Source: Atractiella rhizophila (taxonomy: Eukaryota). Taken from it: a DNA stretch of 35,119 bases. The translations under genes were made by a program, and so were the position numbers. The stretch lies in contig MU271652.1 of the NCBI GenBank assembly GCA_021432655.1, positions 1 to 35,119 on the forward strand, in the 5' to 3' direction. Under the pieces are notes generated by a model. It was given only the letters and a program-made list of their open reading frames with translations. It did no database searches and had not been told where the DNA came from. Below, one piece after another: positions 22,802-35,119 of the stretch. Each line of letters opens with the position of its first letter. The first letter of the stretch is position 1.

Positions 22802-23290
22802 TGTCAGGCTTGCCCCTACGCATTACCGAAATGCACCATCTGAAGTCACGTGACCTACTTTACCATGCCATAGGACCACACGCCTGCCCATCGCCGCTTT
22901 GCTCACGATCTCGCTGATCGCCGCCTTCCCCTGTCTCACACTAATCACCGCTCAGCAAACCTTAACCATTTCGCCGGTCTGCACCGTCTCCATTATTGCT
23001 TTATTGTCCTTTCTCACTTGTACTGCTCAGTATGTCTTATTTCCGAGTTTCCTTTTATTGCTTTCCTGATCTAGCTATCTTACATGTTTCAAGAAACTTA
23101 TGATACAGTTTATGGCAGTGCTCTTACATATGGATATATACATCGAGATGTAGTGGTGGTGACCTCAGAGTATTCTCTTAGGTTTACCTCCACTACAGGT
23201 TAGTCTCCTCATGCCATACTATTCTCTTAGGTTTACCTCCACTACAGACGCATCGCCTATCGGCGACCGCACATAGTGTCAGCCCTAACA
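22802..23290 (+). mobile_element. Solo LTR (TGTCAGG...CCCTAACA) with 5-bp target-site duplication CTTGC, inserted antisense into the RNaseH region
   Basis: TG..CA ends; CTTGC at 22797-22801 and 23291-23295; the flanks join to give ..DGK|FHPLGF..; ~90% identical by eye to the LTRs at 24142-24624 and 26874-27363. Confidence 0.95.
23171..23247 (+). repeat. 28-bp direct repeat inside the LTR (TATTCTCTTAGGTTTACCTCCACTACAG x2), present in all three LTR copies
   Basis: Copies at 23171-23198 and 23220-23247; near-identical pairs occur in the other two LTRs. Confidence 0.85.
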
Positions 23291-24141
23291 CTTGCCATCT
23301 GACTTGATTTGTGACAAACGGCGCTTGTTGTGAAATTCGACACATTGACTTCAAGCAAAAATCGTCCTGTCAGTTCAGCATGTCCCAAAACTTGGCACCA
23401 AAATCATGAGCTGTTTTAAAGCGGTGAACGAACGTTGCTGATCTACCTCCCAGACTCAGGAAGCCTTGTTGTTTGTTAGTTCATATAAAGGTCATGCGGA
23501 ATCTGTCGCAAAGTGGTGGTAGAAGTTAGTGAAACCGAGGAACATTCGGACTTCCTTCTTGTTTTTCAGTTCCGGCCAGTCCATCACTCCTGCGTCTTTT
23601 AGTGGTTCAATCCCTCTGCTGGAAATGATCAAACCTGGATACTCCACCTCATCTTGACACCAAACGTATTTCTGCAAATTTACGTAAAGCCCATTTTCAC
23701 ACAAAATTTGACAAACTTTTCGAACGTGTTCCCAGTGTTCTTCTTCAGTCTCCGTCCTAATCAGGATATCGTAGATGTCTATGAAGATGAACGCAGCGGC
23801 AATTCGGCGATCATCATGCAGAAAATAGAGTTCAGGAAAGCCTGAACAGTCGCCAATGAGTTGCAGAGTCCAAAATACATCACTAACGGTTCGAAAAGTC
23901 CGCGATTAGTGCGAAATGCCGCTTTGTGCTTGTCTCCCTCTTTGATGTGAATGTTGTTGAAACCTTTTCTCAGGTCGATCTTGCTGAAGAATTTCTTACC
24001 AGAGACCATGGAGCAGAGGTCAGCTTGGATGGGGAGTGGAGTGGAGTTTTGTCTTTGACAGTGGCTTCATTCAACTTACCATAGTCGAAAAGGGGACGAA
24101 GTTCAGGTGTCCTTTCTGTGCTTAAAAAAGACGGAACCTCC

Positions 24142-24624
24142 TGTTAGGGCAAACACTATGTGCGGTCGCCGACGGGCGATGCGTCTGTAGTGGAGGTTAA
24201 CCTAAGTGAATAGTATGGCATGAGAAGACTAACCTGTAGTGGAGGTAAACCTAAGAGAATACTCTGCCACCACTACATCTCGATGTATATATACATATGT
24301 AAAGGCACTGCCATAAACTGTAACATACGTTTCTTGAAACACGTAAGATAGCTAGATCGGGAAAGCAATAAAGGGAATACTTGGAAATAAGATGTACTGG
24401 GTAGTACTAGTGAGAAAGGACAATAAGGCGAACATGGAGACGGCACAGACCGGCGAAATGTATAAGGTTTGTTGAGCGGCGATCGTGTGAGAAAGGGGAA
24501 AGCGGCGAACAGCACGGGCATGAGCAGAGCGGCGATGGGTAGGTACGTGATGCCATGACGTGGTAAAGTAGGTCACGTGACTTCAGATGGTGGATTTCGG
24601 TAATGCGTAGGGGCAAGCCTGATA
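24142..24624 (-). mobile_element. Solo LTR of the same family inside pol (PR-RT junction), no target-site duplication
   Basis: Reverse complement of the 22802 LTR with the terminal TG mutated to TA; the flanks (CCTCC vs GAGCG) differ. Confidence 0.9.
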
Positions 24625-25490
24625 GAGCGCCGCTTGTTCGTCTCTTTTCAAGGGGTAGACAGGAACAGCCTATGGTTGAGCTTCTGCTTTGAGGTTGATG
24701 GCATGGTCCCAAGGTCATCAAGGAGGAAGCGAGGTTTTGAATTTTTCGTCTTCGAAAATGTCTGCAAAATCGGCGATTTGCGTCGGTATTTCGACAACGC
24801 TCTTTGGTGTCATTGCCGCTACGTCTTTCACCAGTTTCTGCAATTTTGTCATGGCAGCACGTATTGAGGCAGAGGACGATGGAAGTTGGTCACGTGTGGT
24901 AGACACATCAACCGTGTTGCAACTGGTGGGGCAACGAGAGAACTCAACTTTCCCTGACACCCAGTTAATCTCTGGGTTGTGGTGTCTTAGCCAGTCATGA
25001 CCCAGAATCATGTCGACTGTCCCCAACTCCGCCACCGCGAATTGCCAAACTTCATGATGAGCGGTGATTGAAATGGGTAAATAAGCGACAGAATGGATAG
25101 AACCTCCCTGATTGAGGGATCCGTCGATATTGTAAACAGGCACTGGGGAAGGGAGTTGAGTGATGGGTAGGTTGTATTCAGAAACGAGTTTTGGAGAAAT
25201 AAAGGAAGTGGTTGCCCCGCTGTCGACGAGCGCCGATGTGGCACGTCGGCGATGGGAGTGTGGGTGATGGAAAGCGGTTCTGAGTTTCGTTTTTGAACTG
25301 ACTAGGGATGCTGTTGTCGAACGTAAATGGACTTTGTCGTACATTTTTGCGACATCTGCGCATCTTTGTCTCCAAGATGGAAAACACAATTTTGGAAATG
25401 GGGAGTCTTGTTCGGGAGAAGGGAAATCTGCGCAAAGCGGCGCTTTGTTGGAAGTGATTTTTAGATGACGAAAATGAATTGCAAGTCGGC

Positions 25491-25530
25491 GACGGGACAC
25501 TCCTTTCACCCATGGCCGTCTCAAAAATCC
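25491..25530 (-). promoter_or_regulatory. Putative -1 ribosomal frameshift signal (G GAU UUU UGA) with downstream stem at the gag-pol junction
   Basis: gag ends ..GAG GAT TTT TGA, and the -1 frame continues GGFLRRPW.. into the protease. GACGG(25520-25516)/CCGUC(25495-25491) can form a stem just 3' of the heptamer. Confidence 0.7.
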
Positions 25531-26873
25531 TCCTCCAGATCCGATGATTGAGCGACACTTGTTTTCGGCGACCGGTCGGCGATTTGCGCAGATTGTCGTT
25601 CTTGTTCTACGAGACGAGTGTCGAAATATTCTCCTTGTGCATGAAGGTATTGCTCTTTGCTCATGGACATCTTGCATTCCTTCTCTCTGTGTCCGATCTT
25701 TTGGCATCTTCGACAACGAGGCGGTCTGAACTTCGTTGCCTCCACCTCCATATCGTTGGGGTCTTTAGCTTCATGAGGTTGCGAAGCGGCGATGGGCGAC
25801 AAAGTGGCGCTCGGTCAGTACAGAGGCAGTCCGCTGTTGTCTTTCTGTTTCGTCGATTTTGAGTGATCTTTCTTTGCTGAAAGTGTATTTTGGGTTCCAC
25901 GCGTCGCCAATGAGATGCCCCGAAAGAAGCTGGAATACGCGAATTCTTCTGTGTCGATTCGCCGCGTTTTTTCCTTCCACTCTTCAAGGGACTTGCGGAA
26001 ATCACCTTGTATCACTTTAAGGTACAAAGCAGGATTAAGGCCCGTTTGAAGAAAAATGTGAGCACCTCATCATCAAAGTCTGCCTGATTTGCCAACTCTT
26101 CAAACTTGATGATGTAGGACTCCAGGTTGCCCTTCTGTTGCAGGAAGACAGTTTCGTCTGCGCAATAAGTTTGTGGTCAGTTTTGCAAAAATGCGATCTG
26201 AACTCCGACAAAAATTGCTCCCCCGAAATCTATTCCTCATTTTCGACAAGTCAGCGCAGTATCCCAGCGGCGAATTTTTCAGCATCTCATTCTTTCATAT
26301 ACAATAGAGTAAATAAGATTTTCGACTTTTCTGAAGCGAACTGTCCTGGGATGGCAGACGTGTAGACGTAAATTTCACGGAGAAAGGTCGGCACTGAGCT
26401 AGGTACTCCTTTGAAGATAGAGGGTGTGGCAAGTCTGATTCCAGCATCAGGCAAAACTTGTGCATTTTGAGGTATAGAGGGAGGAGAGTAAGTTTGGGGT
26501 ATTGGGTCTGTTCATGATAAAAAGGGGGAGGTGGTTCCACTGTCTCTAGGAGGAGGCAGTCTGGAGTCCAGTAATTGTAAAATTCGGTCGTTTGTGTTCT
26601 GGATGTCGGACCTCAGTTGCGCAATTTCGTGCGCATTGTGGGAGGTTTGTGCGTTTTGTTGGTTGAAATTTGCTATGAGGTCTTGTTCGATTTTTTTGAA
26701 CTGCTTTTCGGTTGTGAGGTGTAGAGTTTGGAACATCCTTTCTAAGCGATGGATGTGTTCTTCGCTCGTCGGCAATTCGCGCGTTTCCATATCTCCCCAA
26801 ACCTCCAACATTTTTAAGTTTGGTTTTGAAAATGAGAGAGAGTATTCTTCTGTTAGGGCTGACACTATGTGCA

Positions 26874-27516
26874 TGTCAGGCTTGCCCCTACGCATTACCG
26901 AAATGCACCATTTGAAGTCACGTGACCTACTTTACCATGCATAGGATCACGCGCCTACCCATCGCCGCTTTGCTCAATTCCGCGTTGATCGCCGCCTTCC
27001 CCTGTCTCACACGAATCGCCGCTCAGCAAACCTTAAACATTTCGCCGGTCTGCATCGTCTCCATTATTGCCTTTACTGTCCTTTCATACTTGTACTGCTT
27101 AGTATGTCTTATTTCCGAGTATTCCCTTTATTGCTTTCCTGATCTAGCTATCTTACATGTTTCAAGAAACGTATGTTACAGTTTATGGCAGTGCCTTTGC
27201 ATATGTATATATACATTGAGACGTAGTGGCGGTGACCTCAGAGTATTCTCTTAGGTTTACCTCCACTACAGGTTAGTCTTCTCATGCTATACTATTCACT
27301 TAGGTTTACCTCCACTACAGACGCATCGCCTATCGGCGACCGCACATAGTGTCAGCCCTAACAGAAGAATACTCTCCTTATTTTCGTATTTTCGAAACCA
27401 AACTTAAAAATGTCGGAAGTCTGGGGAGATATGGAAACGCGCGAACCGCCGACGAGCGAAGAACGCATCCAGCACTTAGAAAGGATGTTCCAAACTCTAC
27501 ACCTCACAACTGAAAA
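26874..27516 (+). mobile_element. 5' LTR (26874-27363), PBS and gag start (ATG 27410) of a plus-strand copy of the same family; gag truncated at ~27516
   Basis: TG..CA LTR followed by GAAGAATACTCT and MSEVWGDMETREPPTSEERIQHLERMFQTLHLTTE, paralogous to the minus-strand gag. Confidence 0.93.
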
Positions 27517-29874
27517 TGCAACAACTTGGGAAAGGAGTCTAGTTAGAACGACTTTTTGAAGAATGGTCTTTGGTACCTTTTCTCCAGTCGAACTTACCCC
27601 TCACCCCAGAACAGAAACTGACACCGAAGCAAGTCGAAAGCTATTAGCTTTTCCCCTGCTTCAAGCCTCCTCAGAAAAAACACGCACTTTTTTTGTCTTC
27701 GAGGTACAAGTGGACACGATCCTGCATATGCTGGCCGCGAATCAAGCCGCAGTTACTTAACCAGCTCGCGGCGAACAAGCAGAGAAAAGTTCCCATCTGG
27801 CCCGGCGTATACCAGCACTAAGCCCATACTCCAACTAGCGCACTAGGGTTCCTGCAGCCCCTCCTTCTCTTCAAAACTTAAAAAGCAGCAGCTTTTACAG
27901 ACGTTTTAGCCGCTAAACGCAACCATAAAGCTGCTGTAAAAAGAGTAGCGGCGACGCGAAGGGCGGTCAAAGACGCTAAAACAGTATCGCCGAGCATAGC
28001 TCCAGCTGCTACCGCCCTTCACAAGCGCTCACCATCTGTGCAGTAGACGTAACGTTGACCATCCCGTCGCTCTCTTGAGTTGAAAGGGACTCAGGGTCAA
28101 CTAGAGACCCAATACCACAGAATCGGTCAGTACTGGGTCTTAGTACAGCTGTCAGGGGTTGAGGCGGTGTCGCTTAACGGTTTGGAGTACTACTCGCCGC
28201 TAGCTTTACCCGTTTATTCGCTGTCTTACCTATCTTGGTGGGACTAACTCTCTAGGCAGCTATAATATTTGTCCCGTGACCCCTTCCTTCAACTCACTGT
28301 CCATCCAACATACGTCTTTGCTCAAAACCTCTTTATTTTCTTCATCAACGGGGCGACAGCTGCTCGCGGCTACACCGTGCAGCCGCTACCCTTACACCTA
28401 CTACCTTTCGCCAAGACTCGAAGCAAAGAAGCTTGACTGTTCTCTACGACAACAGCTTGCATTTACCTGAAACAGCATGTAAAAGCGCTGTAGACGCGTA
28501 GAAACGGAGGTTCTCCCTTTTGTGTTAAAGCCTTTACCCCTCAGAACGAGTCTTCTTCCCTTTTGACGCGTTTCGCCGCTAAACAACCTTCACTAAAAAT
28601 CTACTGCTTTTACTTAACGTTCAGCCGCTAGCCCTGTGAGGAAGGTGGGTGGCGGCAGGGTTTTTAGGAGGAGTTCTAGGCTACTAACTCGTTGTGAGCA
28701 AAAGCCGCTGGCCAGCCGCTTAACGGGTTTAACAGCAAGAACCAGGTGGTAACTGCTCATAGTTTTATAAGAGGAGACCCGTGCTTCTATAACGAGGAAC
28801 GAGTACCTGTAGCACGTATGTGAAGAGGGCCACAGGCTAGAAAAACCGTAGCGGCTGTTGCTCCTCCAGATTTGAAGCAGCGGAGGTGGAGGTATAGTAG
28901 CCCCAGAAATCGAGGTACTCGCACACCTCGCCGCAACCCACTGCTTCGCCGCTGGCCGCTGTTTCGCCGCGAGCCAGTTATGCTCTGCCCGTCAGGCGAC
29001 AAGAGAGAGACGAAGCTAAGCTAAAACTCGGTAGAGAGAACCGTCTTTTGCATAAAACCCCAGGTGCGCAGCGGTTACTCTACGGGGCTTTCTTCGACCT
29101 TATTCGTTTGAGAAGGCGTAGTTAAGCGGCTCTAAAAAGGAAGGTGAGAAGTTCCCTGAACGCCTTTAGTGGAACCTAGTGAAATTCCATGTTTCGTCCT
29201 AATTCCGGAGCAAACTTCTTTTTTTACTCGTGGAGTAGTAGTTTCAGTCGGACTAAACGGTTGAGAAGTTTGAACTACTACATCCCTGAGGTCCAAGGGG
29301 AAGACGACGTCCCTTCTGTCAAAGCAGACGCGTTATTCGAACACCAGACAGAACGTCTTTGCGCGAAACTTGAGGCTGTTTTTAACAAGGGTGCTTTAAA
29401 CAAGGAGCAAAAGCTGTTCAGCCGCGTTTTAGGGTCGCCGCTTAAAAAGGCGTAGAGGAAGAAAGTACATTCTTTCCCATTTATCCTAAAAGCTAAAAAG
29501 CAAGCCCTTAACCGGACCTTGTCATCTGCACATCTGCATTTAAAGCGCATTTTTACAGCCTCGACACAACCCATGAGGAAACTTCTAACTTCCACCCCGT
29601 TCAAACTATGGACGTATACCACGTTGAACCTGCCAAACCCCATATCTCCCTCTTCCCATTCGGACTCCACAACCCAGACAAGCGCTATTTTTCCCCCTTC
29701 ACCAAGGTGATAGAGATCCTCCTCCATCAGACCTCAGATCGTTAACATTTTAAGCCAGTAAACACAAAAACCTGCAGCCTGGAGTCAACGCGTTAAAGCA
29801 AGCGTAAGACCCTCCAAACGCGTAAAACAACCAACTTCGAACAATACTCCAGAACAAGCTCAAAAAACTTAACG
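27517..29874 (+). pseudogene. Heavily mutated coding-like sequence of unknown (probably mobile) origin, replacing or interrupting gag
   Basis: Broken protein-like + frames (LERLFEEWSLVPFLQ.., KAAAFTDVLAAKRNHKAAVKRVAA.., ALFEHQTERLCAKLEAVFNKG..) with many stops and a skewed dinucleotide composition. Confidence 0.45.
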
Positions 29875-30333
29875 NNNNNNNNNNNNNNNNNNNNNNNNNN
29901 NNNNNNNNNNNNNNNNNNNNNNNNNNNNNNNNNNNNNNNNNNNNNNNNNNNNNNNNNNNNNNNNNNNNNNNNNNNNNNNNNNNNNNNNNNNNNNNNNNNN
30001 NNNNNNNNNNNNNNNNNNNNNNNNNNNNNNNNNNNNNNNNNNNNNNNNNNNNNNNNNNNNNNNNNNNNNNNNNNNNNNNNNNNNNNNNNNNNNNNNNNNN
30101 NNNNNNNNNNNNNNNNNNNNNNNNNNNNNNNNNNNNNNNNNNNNNNNNNNNNNNNNNNNNNNNNNNNNNNNNNNNNNNNNNNNNNNNNNNNNNNNNNNNN
30201 NNNNNNNNNNNNNNNNNNNNNNNNNNNNNNNNNNNNNNNNNNNNNNNNNNNNNNNNNNNNNNNNNNNNNNNNNNNNNNNNNNNNNNNNNNNNNNNNNNNN
30301 NNNNNNNNNNNNNNNNNNNNNNNNNNNNNNNNN
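29875..30333. other. Assembly gap (459 N)
   Basis: Run of N. Confidence 1.
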
Positions 30334-30335
30334 AC

Positions 30336-33047
30336 AGATTTAGTCACATCGCAAGACCTTTATATGAACTGACCAAAAAGGAGGTTTCCTGGGCCTGGGG
30401 GGTAGATGAACGACGTTCGTTCGCCGCTTTGAAGCAGCTCATGACTTCGGCGCCCGTTTTAGCACATCCCGAACAAATAGGACGATTTTTGCTTGAAGTC
30501 GATGCGTCAAATTTCGCGACAGGCGCCGTTTTGTCGCAAATGAAGCCAGATGGGAAGTTTCACCCTCTCGGTTTCGTATCAAAATCCCTCGACGCTGCCC
30601 AGAGGAACTATGACACCTACGACAAAGAAATGCTCGCGATTATGCGAGGACTGCAAGAATGGAGACACCTTCTTCAGGGTACTGATGAGCCATTTCTGAT
30701 CTTGACCGATCACAAAAACCTTGAGTATTTCAGAATGCCACAAAAGTTGAATCGGCGACAGGCACGCTGGATCACTGAACTTGCATCTTTCAACTTCACT
30801 CTATTACACCGTCCTGGACGAAACTCCGCAAAACCAGATGCGCTCAGTCGGCGACCGGATCACAAACCGGCGACTTGCGACAACTTTGACGTAGTATTAC
30901 TCCCAGAACGTTTTTTCAACACAGATCGTATCACGATCAACGCGACTGGGAGTGTGGTTGCGCTCACTAGACAAACGTCGGAGTTGAGTATACTGGAACG
31001 CGTGAAAAAGGTACCTGATAGGGAAGAACAAGTAGTCAAAGCCTTGAGGGAGATCCTAGACGAACCAGTCGATGCAATTCGCCGACGGGAGTGGCAAGAA
31101 GTCGATGGCGCTGTCTACTTTCGCGGGAAACTCTACATTCCACGCGACGACGAAATTCGCCGCTCGATTTTGCAGGACCTGCATGATTCGCAAATCGCCG
31201 GTCATCCAGGCGTAAAATCGACGACGGCTCTTGTAAAAAGGTACTATTGGTGGCCAGGTTTAGCGCATTACGTTCGCCGCTATGTCAGCGCCTGTCACAC
31301 TTGCCACAGAACAAAAAACTTTCCTTCCCCACCTGTCGGGTTTTTGCAACCAAATGACATTCCCACACGTCGCTGGCAAATTGTCAGCATGGACTTGGTT
31401 GGACCTCTCCCAGAATCTGGGGGGTTCGACACGATTTTCGTCATAGTAGACAGACTCTCAAAACGCACCCATCTCATCCCCACCCATTCGACGATGGATG
31501 CAGAAGGCCTTGCAAGACTTTTTCGTGATCACATATGGAAGCTACATGGACTTTTCAATGTCGCAATTTTCGATCGAGGCAAAGAGTTTGTGTCCAAATT
31601 CACATCCGCGCTTTTTCGCCTATTAGGTATCAAAGGCTCACCATCGACAGCCTACCACCCGCAAAGTGATGGCCAGACTGAACGCATGAACCAAGAGGTT
31701 GAACAATATTTGCGCATTTTCTGCAATCACCTTCAAGATAACTGGGTAGAAGGACTTCCCAACGCAGAATTTGCGCTCAACAACCGCGTCAGTTCGGCGA
31801 CGGGCGTAACTCCATTTTCGCTCGATTGCGGTCAACATCCCCGCATGGCCTTTGAACCCATCTCCGACGAGGACGTTCCCGCGGCGGCGCAATTCGTCGA
31901 AAAGATGCAAATCGCCGACCGGGAAGCACAAGCGGCACTCGAGCAAGCAGCAGACCTCATGGCCAAACATTACGACAGAAAACGCGCACCGGCGCCCGAA
32001 TATCACGTCGGCGACTTCGTCTGGTTGAGCGCGAAAAACATCAAATCGACAAGACCTGTCAAAAAGAATGTCGCAATTTTCGATCGAGGCAAAGAGTTTG
32101 TGTCCAAATTCACATCCGCGCTTTTTCGCCTATTAGGTATCAAAGGCTCACCATCGACAGCCTACCACCCGCAAAGTGATGGCCAGACTGAACGCATGAA
32201 CCAAGAGGTTGAACAATATTTGCGCATTTTCTGCAATCACCTTCAAGATAATTGGGTGGAGGGACTTCCCAACGCAGAATTTGCGCTCAACAACCGCGTC
32301 AGTTCGGCGACGGGCGTAACTCCATTTTCGCTCGATTGCGGTCAACATCCCCGCATGGCCTTTGAACCCATCTCCGACGAGGACGTTCCCGCGGCGGCGC
32401 AATTCGTCGAAAAGATGCAAATCGCCGACCGGGAAGCACAAGCGGCACTCGAGCAAGCAGCAGACCTCATGGCCAAACATTACGACAGAAAACGCGCACC
32501 GGCGCCCGAATATCACGTCGGCGACTTCGTCTGGTTGAGCGCGAAAAACATCAAATCGACAAGACCTGTCAAAAAGTTGGACGACAAATGGCATGGCCCT
32601 TTTCGCGTTTTGCAAGTTTTGGGTCCCCTCAACCTTAAACTTGAGTTGCCATCCTCATGGAAGATACATCCAGTGTTCCATATAGGTCTAATACGAAAAG
32701 TCAACGAAGACGACATCCCGGGCAGAGTCCAGTTGCCCAAACCGCCTCCGGAATTGGTGAATGGAATTGAAGAATGGGAAGTGGAGAAAATTGTCGATGG
32801 AAGATGGTTCGGTACCCGGAATAGAGTTTTCAAATATCGCGTTCGATACAAAGGGTATTCACCATCTGAGGACGAATGGATCAACATCGCAGATCTAGAA
32901 AATTCGCAGGATGCCATAAAAGACTATCACACTGCACACCCTCTCGCAGTTCGTCCCGATTCCATACCGAACTCCGCAAAAAATCGCCCAAATGCACGTT
33001 TTCGTAACCTTCGACGAAAACGGGCTGAAGGGTCTTCCTCACTTTAA
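30336..33047 (+). CDS. pol: Ty3/gypsy chromovirus Pol, C-terminal part: RT connection, RNase H, integrase (HHCC, D,D35E, GPY/F), chromodomain
   Basis: LEVDASNFATGAVL, RNYDTYDKEMLAI, LTDHKNL, H..GHPG..CHTC, VSMDLV, FDRGKEF, QSDGQTERMNQ, WHGPF..HPVFH, and chromodomain EEWEVEKIV..YRVRYKGYSPSEDEW. RNaseH DNA is ~85% identical by eye to the minus-strand copy. Confidence 0.97.
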   Translation, partial: RFSHIARPLYELTKKEVSWAWGVDERRSFAALKQLMTSAPVLAHPEQIGRFLLEVDASNFATGAVLSQMKPDGKFHPLGFVSKSLDAAQRNYDTYDKEMLAIMRGLQEWRHLLQGTDEPFLILTDHKNLEYFRMPQKLNRRQARWITELASFNFTLLHRPGRNSAKPDALSRRPDHKPATCDNFDVVLLPERFFNTDRITINATGSVVALTRQTSELSILERVKKVPDREEQVVKALREILDEPVDAIRRREWQEVDGAVYFRGKLYIPRDDEIRRSILQDLHDSQIAGHPGVKSTTALVKRYYWWPGLAHYVRRYVSACHTCHRTKNFPSPPVGFLQPNDIPTRRWQIVSMDLVGPLPESGGFDTIFVIVDRLSKRTHLIPTHSTMDAEGLARLFRDHIWKLHGLFNVAIFDRGKEFVSKFTSALFRLLGIKGSPSTAYHPQSDGQTERMNQEVEQYLRIFCNHLQDNWVEGLPNAEFALNNRVSSATGVTPFSLDCGQHPRMAFEPISDEDVPAAAQFVEKMQIADREAQAALEQAADLMAKHYDRKRAPAPEYHVGDFVWLSAKNIKSTRPVKKNVAIFDRGKEFVSKFTSALFRLLGIKGSPSTAYHPQSDGQTERMNQEVEQYLRIFCNHLQDNWVEGLPNAEFALNNRVSSATGVTPFSLDCGQHPRMAFEPISDEDVPAAAQFVEKMQIADREAQAALEQAADLMAKHYDRKRAPAPEYHVGDFVWLSAKNIKSTRPVKKLDDKWHGPFRVLQVLGPLNLKLELPSSWKIHPVFHIGLIRKVNEDDIPGRVQLPKPPPELVNGIEEWEVEKIVDGRWFGTRNRVFKYRVRYKGYSPSEDEWINIADLENSQDAIKDYHTAHPLAVRPDSIPNSAKNRPNARFRNLRRKRAEGSSSL
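31557..32576 (+). repeat. In-frame 510-bp tandem duplication inside integrase (31557-32066 / 32067-32576)
   Basis: The 170-aa block NVAIFDRG...RPVKK occurs twice; only 3 synonymous differences were seen (31742/32252, 31748/32258, 31751/32261). Confidence 0.95.
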
Positions 33048-33482
33048 GGGGCCCAACACCCCTATATGCCTTGCCGGGTGAAATCCTAGTCTTTGAGACT
33101 TAGGTCAAGGCAGGGCGCCGACTTGCTCCTCAACGGGCAAGTCGGCGACTTGGTCGTTGGTGAGTCCATTCGTCGCCCGTCAAAGACGAATGCTCATTGC
33201 GTTCTCGCACCATCACCAATGTCGCACTTACGAAAATTGTCCTCAATCGCGAGGTCCCCTCCCCCTCACTTTAAGAGGTCCTACTCCTCTATATGCCTCG
33301 CTGGGTGAATCCCTAGTCATACTGTTGAACATAGGTCTAAGCGAGGCGCCGGTCTGTTCCTCAACGGACAGATCGGCGACCAGTTTGTCGGTGAGTTACT
33401 CACCCCATTTTCACAAACGGTTACTTACTGCACCAAAACAATACCGGTCAAACTTCAAAAAATCCCTCAATTGCGAGGTACA
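33030..33482 (+). ncRNA. Tandem pair of ~227-nt structured cis-acting RNA modules in the retrotransposon 3' region (unclassified)
   Basis: Two diverged copies share several helices; three show compensatory substitutions (detailed in findings). G-U pairs favour the + (genomic RNA) strand. Confidence 0.65.
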
Positions 33483-33484
33483 CA

Positions 33485-33715
33485 ATGACTTCCCCTCATC
33501 CTACACTCTGTTTGGTTTTGATGATTATTGTTTCCTATTTTTGCTTTTACCTTTTGATTCCCATCCTTATTCGCTCGACAACACATTCTTCCACGAAGAA
33601 GGCAGACCGGCGACGAGCACGCAAATCGCCGACCCGTTATACTGCGCGTTGTGTCCACGAGCGCGTGGCCCAGGCCTGTTTGGTTGCGAGCTCCAAAATA
33701 AGCTTGGGTAGCTAG
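33485..33715 (+). CDS. Candidate 76-aa small transmembrane protein with polybasic tail
   Basis: ATG 6 nt after the last hairpin of RNA module 2; TM segment LCLVLMIIVSYFCFYLLIPILI followed by KKADRRRARK. Could be a chance ORF in U-rich UTR. Confidence 0.3.
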   Translation: MTSPHPTLCLVLMIIVSYFCFYLLIPILIRSTTHSSTKKADRRRARKSPTRYTARCVHERVAQACLVASSKISLGS

Positions 33716-34103
33716 TGGGAGGAACGCCTGAGGGTCCTCCCCTAGACAGGGGAGTGTGAGTCCTGCATCACCCACTTTGCCATTGCTCTCCTCACTCACC
33801 ACAATGCCTGATGCCACCATGACACGATTTACACTTGTCGCCGCCTGGCAATTCGCCGCTGTTACGGAGGCGCAAAACGCATACATTTCAGAGATCAAAA
33901 TCACCACTCTGGACTGACTCCTCACTATCGCTGCTGCTCGAAGAAGAAACGGAATATGCATCATAATTGGAATTGCCATAGGCCTCTTGGGCTAAAGAAG
34001 GGTTTAAGTCGCCTAGTCGAAACTCAATTTCGCCGATACGACGTATTTTCTGCAACTGGCGATGGGTCAGGTGCCCTACGATGCCTAAACAACATCTAGA
34101 TAG

Positions 34104-35118
34104 TCAGACAGATCGCCGAAAAACGGATGAACTCACCCTACCAGTCACATCGGCGATCACACCTTCCACAGCCGAATCTTCACTAGCCCCATCCTCCGCG
34201 GCTCGATCGTCCTGCCTCCTTTTATACAATTCCATCTGCAACTCAGCGGCCTTCAGGGCGTCCGCCGCCGCTTGCGCATTCAATTTGGCGGCAGCTAACA
34301 TGGTTTGTGCGAAGTCCAGGCTGAATGCCTCAGAGTACAATCGGGCGGCGCTCAGCAACGATTGCGAAGGAGAATCCTCGTCCACGTCCGAAATATTCTC
34401 GTAATTGCTTTCGATGAAGGCCGATGGACGTTTTTTCCCGTCGCCGATACGTTTAGGATGGAATGAAGTCGACATTACGACTAACATCGAGAGTTCCCGC
34501 AAATATCCCAATGGCAAAACCTCACACCTTTTTCGCGAACTATGACAACGCGAACAGACCCGTCCGAACGCGGTTGCGACATACCCAGCAGAGAAGTCGC
34601 ACACCTGCGAGTCGTTGTCACCCTTGGCTTTCTTTTTCGCCGCTTTGACAGGCGCCTCGAACCTTTCCAGTACAATTGCTACAGCGCTGTGTCCCGATGC
34701 TTGCTAACGTGGGAAGAATGCGCGCATTCGCCCGAGGAGTCGTGATAACCAATTCCAGATCCAGCTCACCCAGATTGATGTTTGCCGCAGCGTGGGAATA
34801 AGCCTCACGAGTACCCGGCCAGAAGTACCGGTATTTCGCTGCATCCAATTCCTTGTCGCCGATTCGCACTTTTCCGTCGCGCACTACGAATTCGGCAACC
34901 GGCGCACCGGCGAACGGATTTCGATCCCCCAACGCTGCAGGCAAAACGAAAGTAGTTGCAGTAACCAGGTGGTCAGACAGGGTCCTCACGACCCCGACCT
35001 CGGATCCCTTCGCCGCCGAAATCGACTTTTGAGCGCGCAAATTTTCCTCCGCCGCTCGACGTTTGATTTCGAGCGCCGCCCGTTTGCGTTCCTCTTCTTC
35101 CTTCGCCAAGCGTTTTTT
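34104..35118 (-). CDS. Antisense gene (5' end outside the window): coiled coil + Zn2Cys6-like cluster + coiled coil; putative intron 34605-34662
   Basis: A 58-nt GTTCGA..GGTGAC..GCAG intron joins the two listed ORFs in frame to give RCSNCTGK|VCDFSAGYVATAFGRVCSRCHSSRKRC (C-x2-C-x4-C-x14-C-x2-C-x6-C), flanked by E/K/R/A-rich helices. Confidence 0.65.
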
Positions 35119-35119
35119 C

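Follow-up and report, generated by a model that had tools for sequence, protein, structure and literature searches.

The RNA module described here lies near the right end of a 35,119-nucleotide (nt) stretch of Atractiella rhizophila DNA (assembly GCA_021432655.1, contig MU271652.1, positions 1 to 35,119 of the forward strand; hereafter the window), where it starts around the stop codon of the pol gene of a long terminal repeat (LTR) retrotransposon. The frame terminated by TAA at 33045-33047 encodes, in this order, the domains RT_RNaseH, Integrase_H2C2, rve, SH3_Tf2-1, and Chromo, all scoring above the Pfam cut-offs. An initial annotation, made from the letters alone, had ascribed this frame to a fungal chromovirus, and the assignment is borne out by the RNase H, integrase, SH3_Tf2-1, and Chromo domains, by the named relatives of pol, which are fungal except for one alga, and by an adjoining gene 90% identical to an Atractiella rhizophila protein. 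Even the closest relatives of pol share only ~51% identity with it across the last 314 residues. To our knowledge, few functional cis-acting RNA structures are known, except from animals and yeast, in the untranslated region at the 3′ end (3′ UTR) of LTR retrotransposons. The old diverged repeat that follows pol is a real, selected, and duplicated RNA fold in the 3′ UTR of a fungal chromovirus. A fold kept in duplicate by a very abundant element of this type would offer a tractable case for studying how intronless retroelement RNA is expressed, exported, or packaged in an intron-rich basidiomycete and, if functional, would add a new RNA family.

Tandem Repeat at the End of pol

Two diverged copies of a ~227-nt unit follow each other from the pol stop (Table 1), as the initial annotation had reported, and every position given there, that of the stop codon included, agrees with the sequence. 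Direct-repeat search placed the copies at spacings of 227 and 231 nt with identities of 84% and 75%, respectively, while self-BLAST of the window detected 76% identity over 133 nt (E 1.8e-12) and no further copy of the module elsewhere in the window; Tandem Repeats Finder did not report the repeat. The unit begins ~10 nt upstream of the pol stop, implying that the duplication arose within the element and not by insertion of foreign sequence, and its first 12 nt, CCTCACTTTAAG, are identical in unit 2, where they are non-coding. At their far ends both units carry the expected CCTC-AAT(C/T)GC-GAGG (CCTCAATYGCGAGG at 33241-54 and 33467-80). In this copy the non-coding stretch after the pol stop amounts to at least 435 nt. 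A coding interpretation was considered and rejected: the 204-codon frame crossing the module is without homolog (0 matches among 90 candidate predicted proteins), and the repeat period of 227/231 nt does not keep one frame.

Table 1. Positions of the tandem units, their helices, and adjoining features in the window
Feature	Position	Strand	Basis
3′ part of Ty3/gypsy chromovirus pol	30339..33047	+	Pfam matches, tblastn with related polyproteins, open reading frame list
Candidate polypurine-like tract, 16/20 purines, inside pol end just upstream of the repeat	33014..33033	+	read from sequence
Unit 1, reaching back into the final 10-12 nt of pol with its stop codon	~33035..33261	+	unit alignment, direct repeats, self-BLAST
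Helix a, unit 1: 5 bp, 7-nt loop; its first pair involves the final A of the TAA stop	33047-51/33059-63	+	RNAfold, pair count
Helix b, unit 1: 8 bp; encloses internal loop GGGUGAAAU / UCAA and inner hairpin 33085-33104	33068-75/33109-16	+	RNAfold, pair count
Helix c, unit 1: 12 bp, loop CUCAAC	33117-28/33135-46	+	RNAfold, pair count
Candidate helix d, unit 1: 10 bp, 4 wobble; uses GGUGAGU	33155..33201	+	RNAalifold, pair count; weaker support
CCUC-AAUCGC-GAGG, unit 1 end: may either form a small hairpin, e, or help to close the unit together with its initial CCUC	33241..33254	+	sequence, RNAalifold; positions invariant
Unit 2	~33262..33482	+	unit alignment, direct repeats, self-BLAST
Helix a, unit 2	33274-78/33286-90	+	RNAfold, pair count
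Helix b, unit 2; inner hairpin CCUA 33312-15 / UAGG 33332-35	33295-302/33340-47	+	RNAfold, pair count
Helix c, unit 2: 12 bp, loop CUCAAC	33348-59/33366-77	+	RNAfold, pair count
Candidate helix d, unit 2: 10 bp; competes with a local hairpin and the proposed pseudoknot	33386..33432	+	RNAfold, RNAalifold, pair count
CCUC-AAUUGC-GAGG, unit 2 end	33467..33480	+	sequence
Gene of another repeated element, outside the module; right boundary of the region	34104..35118	-	90% identity to an Atractiella rhizophila hypothetical protein

Compensatory Changes Between the Units

Folded alone with RNAfold, each unit is predicted to form helices a and b, the inner hairpin enclosed by b, and helix c (z -4.0 and -4.4), and the same helices are recovered when the whole 461-nt stretch is folded (z -6.95); in both units helix c abuts helix b without any linker. 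The proposal that helices a, b, and c are preserved by paired substitutions withstood systematic counting. Helices a, b, and c together with the base of the inner hairpin comprise 29 pairs, and 58 of 58 cells are paired across the two units; six of the pairs that changed did so on both sides, i.e., in a compensatory manner, and two on one side with the formation of wobble pairs. In slid controls with partners moved by 1-3 columns, 29-48% of cells were paired and double changes did not occur (0). All 14 stem substitutions are transitions, compared with 10 transitions among the 24 substitutions of unpaired aligned columns (Fisher p 2.8e-4). When 14 substitutions were placed at random in the stems, no pair was lost in 4201 of 2,000,000 trials restricted to transitions and in 24 of 3,000,000 trials run with the overall transition share (24/38). 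The helices are maintained between the units by compensatory transitions on the plus strand.

As for the strand, two G.U pairs per unit are present in the counted helices and would each be a mismatch in the complement; folding of the minus strand breaks helix c and gives unit 2 a poorer energy (-50.3 versus -55.3 kcal/mol). Taken together, the G.U pairs and the poorer minus-strand folds point to plus-strand RNA, which has the sense of the element transcript, as the molecule probably subjected to selection.

Some single-stranded motifs are invariant between the units. CCUCA occurs three times per unit (first at its start, then in the loop of helix c, and again close to its end), GGGUGAA occupies the internal loop of helix b, and the loop CUCAAC of helix c, described from the outset as invariant, is indeed present in both units. 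In unit 1 the internal loop of helix b as a whole reads GGGUGAAAU / UCAA; its counterpart in unit 2 is GGGUGAAUC / UCUA.

Distribution Among Family Copies

In one sequencing run (X1) the element is present at very high multiplicity, with 982 contigs falling on 32600-34400, of which 350 are at least 99% identical, 358 are 95-99%, 197 are 90-95%, and 77 are less than 90% identical. Summed depth over the module up to 33392 is ~22-46 thousand, similar to that at the pol end (~22-42 thousand). Contigs bridging unit 1 to unit 2, among those listed, cover 33100-33374, 33108-33308, and 33194-33397, and none of the six joints listed for this run skips a unit; thus the tandem form is a trait of the family, older than much of its diversification. 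The tandem arrangement occurs in many copies of this very abundant family.

At least 10 letters of the module differ in run X1 among the variant rows tallied, beyond which 120 further rows exist, and seven of these differences are carried by most of the depth. Two of them concern helix b: G>A at 33113 (nearly all depth) converts U.G into U-A, and A>G at 33340 (about two thirds of depth) converts U-A into U.G, the pair being kept in either case. Other runs yielded little material, the soil and rhizosphere runs X3 and X4 containing only 151-nt pieces with 0-2 differing letters and run X7 giving short matches with unlike flanks.

Boundaries of the Copy

The initial annotation also stated that neither a polypurine tract (PPT) nor an LTR follows pol. 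For this copy the statement holds in that no direct repeat flanks pol (direct-repeat search and self-BLAST, with an LTR expected to be accompanied by a PPT and a primer-binding site, PBS), but it cannot be extended to the family, since the copy looks truncated and a purine-rich tract precedes the stop. Although the stop-to-stop frame containing the pol end extends over 29826-33047, homology to related polyproteins found with tblastn begins only at 30339, and the chromovirus copy is therefore 5′-truncated. To the right of the module, depth in run X1 nowhere in 33483-34400 exceeds that of pol, as an LTR should, and another repeated element is located there, for which reasons the copy is probably truncated soon after unit 2 as well. 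Inspection by eye found nothing convincing as PBS-like or tRNA complementarity, ARAGORN reported 0 tRNA or tmRNA genes in the whole window, leaving no tRNA-like cloverleaf among its results, and a likeness between the tail of unit 2 and the pre-gag leader of a second, reversed chromovirus copy (local score 22) was matched by 5 of 500 shuffles and judged to be chance.

The purine-rich tract, which could serve as a PPT-like element, ends exactly at the repeat start. This coincidence is what might be expected if the module acted as DNA, i.e., if the 3′ LTR started with its U3 part after the tract at ~33034 and the units represented repeated enhancers; in addition, the LTR-like repeat of one relative (L029) begins upstream of its pol stop. 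Against this, depth over the module does not rise above that of pol, as would be expected of a sequence present twice per element and in solo copies (admittedly a weak measure), the presumed LTR does not start with TG, and compensatory changes along with wobble pairs fit RNA rather than DNA repeats bound by protein. The chance that the module is a DNA-level element consequently appears slim.

A 76-codon frame with a hydrophobic stretch (33486-33716) starts from an ATG 4 nt beyond unit 2, in a part of the region where family depth is low; the frame is probably a chance one. Its closeness to the module could be taken in favor of an internal ribosome entry site (IRES) or another translation element serving this downstream open reading frame (ORF), as had been suggested. 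Yet family depth is much lower past 33392, a part that probably belongs to other sequence, searches with frames crossing the region gave no homolog, and the ORF is short and unsupported, so that an IRES is scarcely to be expected here.

Relatives and Known RNA Families

The fold could not be assigned to a known RNA family from the outset, and the search of Rfam led to the same outcome: Rfam 15 (4227 models) gave 0 matches in 32000-35119 at E up to 10, and the scan of a 481-nt segment produced three chance-level matches only (mir-1677, mir-44, and CDKN2B-AS; E 3.4-7.7, 13-15 bits versus cut-offs of 54-84), none reaching the gathering threshold.

For comparison with other elements, 79 metagenomic chromovirus loci with 35-51% protein identity were used as relatives. 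Among them 36 extend at least ~330 nt beyond the stop, and eight carry repeat pairs placed like LTRs. The spacer between the stop and the 3′ LTR is ~35 nt in L064, ~71 nt in both L006 and L054, ~91 nt in L056, ~182 nt in L059, and ~336 nt in L046, compared with at least 435 nt of non-coding sequence in the present copy; in L029 and L032 the 5′ LTR-like copy is cut by the contig end. Candidate pairs of L011, L013, L060, and L062 were dropped due to location of the repeats at both contig ends, and those of L027, L030, L044, and L078 as internal or nested duplications. For the first 230 nt after the stop, with 30 shuffles per sequence, fold z-scores of the 36 relatives lay between -5.7 and +2.1, and two were -4.5 or lower, their folds being unrelated to that of the module; the values for the window were -5.1 and -4.5. 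Strong folding just after the stop is therefore unusual but not unique. The most structured relative (L016) and the closest one (L011) have different folds and no such tandem repeat. Degenerate patterns of the module gave 0 matches in viral contigs and two chance matches in prokaryote genome contigs, one of which reached 6.2 bits through helix c alone while the second had no score, and a search of genome contigs with pol returned two irrelevant short matches. On the sequence data at hand, the module looks lineage-specific.

Proposed Pseudoknot and Other Contacts

Beyond helices a, b, and c, several further contacts may contribute to the fold. Helix d, with all cells paired, one double and four one-sided changes, and slid controls at 21-58% of cells, is probably the fourth hairpin of each unit, its support being only modest because the helix was chosen by the predictor (RNAalifold). 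The same program closes each unit by pairing the start CCUC with the end GAGG, all positions of which are invariant. The initial annotation had in addition proposed a pseudoknot between GGGTGA inside helix b (33076-81 and 33303-08) and the downstream TCGCCC (33173-78) or TCACCC (33400-05). The GGGUGA/UC(G/A)CCC pairing can form in both units, but it contains a single one-sided change, and by simple arithmetic 100 nt should contain ~0.8 sites with which GGGUGA can pair when G.U is admitted, which makes the pseudoknot possible, though no better than chance. In the contact suggested between the loop CUCA of helix c and a downstream UGAG, all positions are invariant. Both contacts compete for GGUGAG(U) with helix d and with a local hairpin of unit 2 predicted by RNAfold (GGUGAG/CUCACC, 33390-33404).

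Flavivirus 3′ UTRs open with exoribonuclease-resistant RNAs (xrRNAs), tandem structured modules located right after the stop codon and built as a three-way junction with ring-forming pseudoknots. The module resembles them in having duplicated structured segments from the stop codon of the last ORF, and its pseudoknot is sterically possible, so an exonuclease-stalling element that leaves stable 3′ fragments or protects RNA might be imagined. Helix b, however, encloses a single hairpin and lacks the three-way junction, Rfam gave no family match and no nuclease-resistant RNA family among the matches listed, and the pseudoknot is not beyond chance, all of which renders stalling of this type very unlikely.

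Hepatitis delta virus (HDV)-like ribozymes are nested double pseudoknots that have a short P3/L3, a P1.1, and a short J4/2 carrying the catalytic C. If the pseudoknot (PK) is included, the strand order of the module, b-PK-inner hairpin-b-c-PK, recalls this layout, yet the likeness is topological only: the joiner is long (22-26 nt), the inner hairpin is long as well, no linker separates b and c, the pseudoknot has its one one-sided change, and the matches listed by Rfam up to E 10 included no ribozyme family, of HDV type or otherwise. Moreover, cleavage at this place would remove the 3′ end needed for reverse transcription, and we regard a self-cleaving ribozyme as extremely improbable.

A broader possibility, which we consider quite unlikely, is a new class of retroelement RNA module, in which the pseudoknotted fold (b, inner hairpin, c, and long-range GGGUGA/UCRCCC) present in two tandem copies would act by its shape and not through a bound protein. 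Such a fold may block 5′-3′ exonuclease, leaving a stable 3′ fragment, or, alternatively, a switch between pseudoknot and helix d could mask or expose the splice-donor-like GGUGAGU. No fungal LTR retrotransposon is known to have anything comparable described for it, and the literature searches gave no such report. A perfect copy of the GGUGAGU heptamer is found in each unit and is followed 87-94 nt later by GCGAG/G (33160-33254 and 33391-33478), the enclosed stretch having the size of a fungal intron; none of the six joints listed for run X1 removes it.

Other Repeats in the Window

The pol copy adjoins and contains several rearrangements of its own. An A+T-rich stretch (29826-30339) without homology to related polyproteins is joined in frame to the truncated pol, and G+C is 0.33 in the overlapping bin 30001-31000. 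Within the integrase region, a 510-nt tandem duplication (31557-32066 versus 32067-32576, 99.4% identical) adds 170 codons with the frame intact; it could be a recent event in this copy or an assembly artefact. The minus-strand gene bounding the region on the right has a frame change near 34651-34655 and no Pfam domain, and is multi-copy in run X1, with depth in thousands.

A second chromovirus copy, reversed and interrupted, extends from gag to RNase H at 26439-22659. It is interrupted by two copies of a ~490-nt repeat found three times with 84-99% identity (22802-23290 and 26874-27363 on the plus strand, 24138-24625 on the minus strand), which encodes the first 38 residues of an Atractiella-like protein (P0121) and is probably the end of another mobile element. 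Perfect inverted repeats of 35 nt are located at 26838-26872 and 27342-27376. The inserted repeat is flanked by a 129-nt inverted duplication (26705-26833 / 27388-27516, 92% complementary) derived from the gag start of the reversed copy, a palindromic rearrangement of local extent.

The heptamer TCGCCGA occurs 30 times in the window on both strands, versus 3.7 expected and a largest count of nine in shuffles. Its occurrences are dense in 23000-35000, where it is found in pol, in other repeats, and at the 3′ foot of helix c of both units (33142-48 and 33373-79), and it may be a genomic motif or one belonging to the transposons.

Possible Function

The conserved pairing pattern is hard to explain without selection on plus-strand RNA, and the module may therefore be read as a cis-acting 3′-UTR structure. 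Our preferred reading, to which we assign a probability of about 0.5, is that this selected and duplicated structure of the genomic RNA acts as a multivalent protein-binding platform for export, stability, and/or packaging. In this reading, the two units go back to a single structured 3′-UTR segment of the full-length (genomic) retrotransposon RNA that was duplicated in tandem long ago. Each unit is composed of hairpin a, an irregular hairpin b with conserved internal loop, the 12-bp hairpin c stacked directly on b, and probably hairpin d, and the invariant single-stranded motifs would provide sites for multivalent protein binding, the number of which would be doubled by the duplication. The platform, once bound, would promote cytoplasmic accumulation (via export or stability) and/or packaging of unspliced RNA. 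Protein binding is proposed because of the position after the last ORF and the placement of short invariant motifs in single-stranded regions, and the particular step served, be it export, stability, packaging, or reverse transcription, can only be inferred by analogy. Nothing speaks directly for a ribozyme, a nuclease stop, or an IRES, and each of these readings falls short on the features that could be checked.

Several observations weigh against the proposed platform. Only two paralogous units, both from a single copy of the element, underlie the covariation. Variants listed for run X1 show no depletion in helices a, b, and c, which harbor 2 of the 10 and make up ~22% of the region. Depth in the same run drops 3- to 5-fold past 33392, inside unit 2, and from depth one cannot tell copies that differ there from those that are simply more diverged. 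No RNA run among the 17 sequencing-run rows listed contains the stretch. As for the 79 relatives, blastn with the module revealed no similarity, and a covariance model constructed from the two units (29 pairs), which scores those units at 166 bits, gave 0 matches with default filters and, with filters off in 18 of the 79 loci, nothing better than E 4.6; being built from two sequences, the model is weak for distant folds. Absence from other full-length elements had been named in advance as an argument against a selected fold, and the module indeed went undetected after pol in these relatives, but relatives this distant (35-51% identity), searched with so weak a model, do not suffice to call it absent. 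Finally, no result favors export over packaging, stability, reverse transcription, or translation.

Two of these points, the lack of detection in the relatives and the undepleted helices, would suit a neutral by-product, that is, a repeat generated by template switching in the course of reverse transcription, as happens in plant LTR retrotransposons with hypervariable 3′ UTRs, with the hairpins carried along devoid of function. Drift at ~24% divergence, however, should break pairs, whereas 58 of 58 cells pair with six double changes and no stem transversion, and the fold is kept in both diverged units. While a neutral origin of the repeat itself is plausible, it leaves the conserved pairing unexplained, and the module as a whole is unlikely to be a functionless passenger. 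Were it one, it would show how far compensatory-looking change between paralogous repeats can mislead.

Comparison With Known Systems

The element for nuclear expression (ENE) is a U-rich internal loop flanked by G-C-rich stems, which clamps the poly(A) tail. The internal loops of helix b, GGGUGAAAU / UCAA and GGGUGAAUC / UCUA, are not of this type. The ENE triple helix in the 3′ region of Arabidopsis Evade (Copia93) protects the transcript and raises mobility, being, like the module, an RNA structure of an LTR retrotransposon; Evade was also the sole retrotransposon with a tested 3′ RNA structure found in the literature searched (PMC12501189). Literature searches on retrotransposon exoribonuclease-resistant RNA, on covariation and structure in LTR-retrotransposon 3′ UTRs, and on Atractiella transposable elements turned up no element like the module.

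Transport elements of retroviruses and retroelements provide the closest parallel to the proposed function. Passages of PMC4588558 and PMC11379458 place them, with the exception of the MLV/XMRV element (MLV, murine leukemia virus; XMRV, xenotropic MLV-related virus), in the untranslated stretch that separates the last ORF from the 3′ LTR. The constitutive transport element (CTE) of Mason-Pfizer monkey virus (MPMV), the direct repeats of Rous sarcoma virus (RSV), the RNA transport element (RTE) of intracisternal A-particles (IAP), and the MusD transport element (MTE) are structured and cis-acting, some with repeated binding motifs, and long-range or pseudoknot contacts are reported for them in the same passages (PMC4588558; PMC11379458). 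Only the position after the last ORF is shared with the module, whose function would accordingly be assigned by analogy (PMC4588558). The module differs in being fungal, in having no sequence or Rfam relation to these elements, and in consisting of two direct tandem units instead of one long hairpin.

With respect to the repeat itself, the nearest counterpart is found in plant Tat/Ogre elements, which similarly carry tandem repeats directly downstream of gag-pol, probably made during replication, with template switching as the accepted source (passages of PMC7004042). These arrays are described as hypervariable, and the passages in question claim no structure for them (PMC7004042). The module, in contrast, has two copies only, which are old, ~76-84% identical, and changed in such a compensatory way that the fold is kept.

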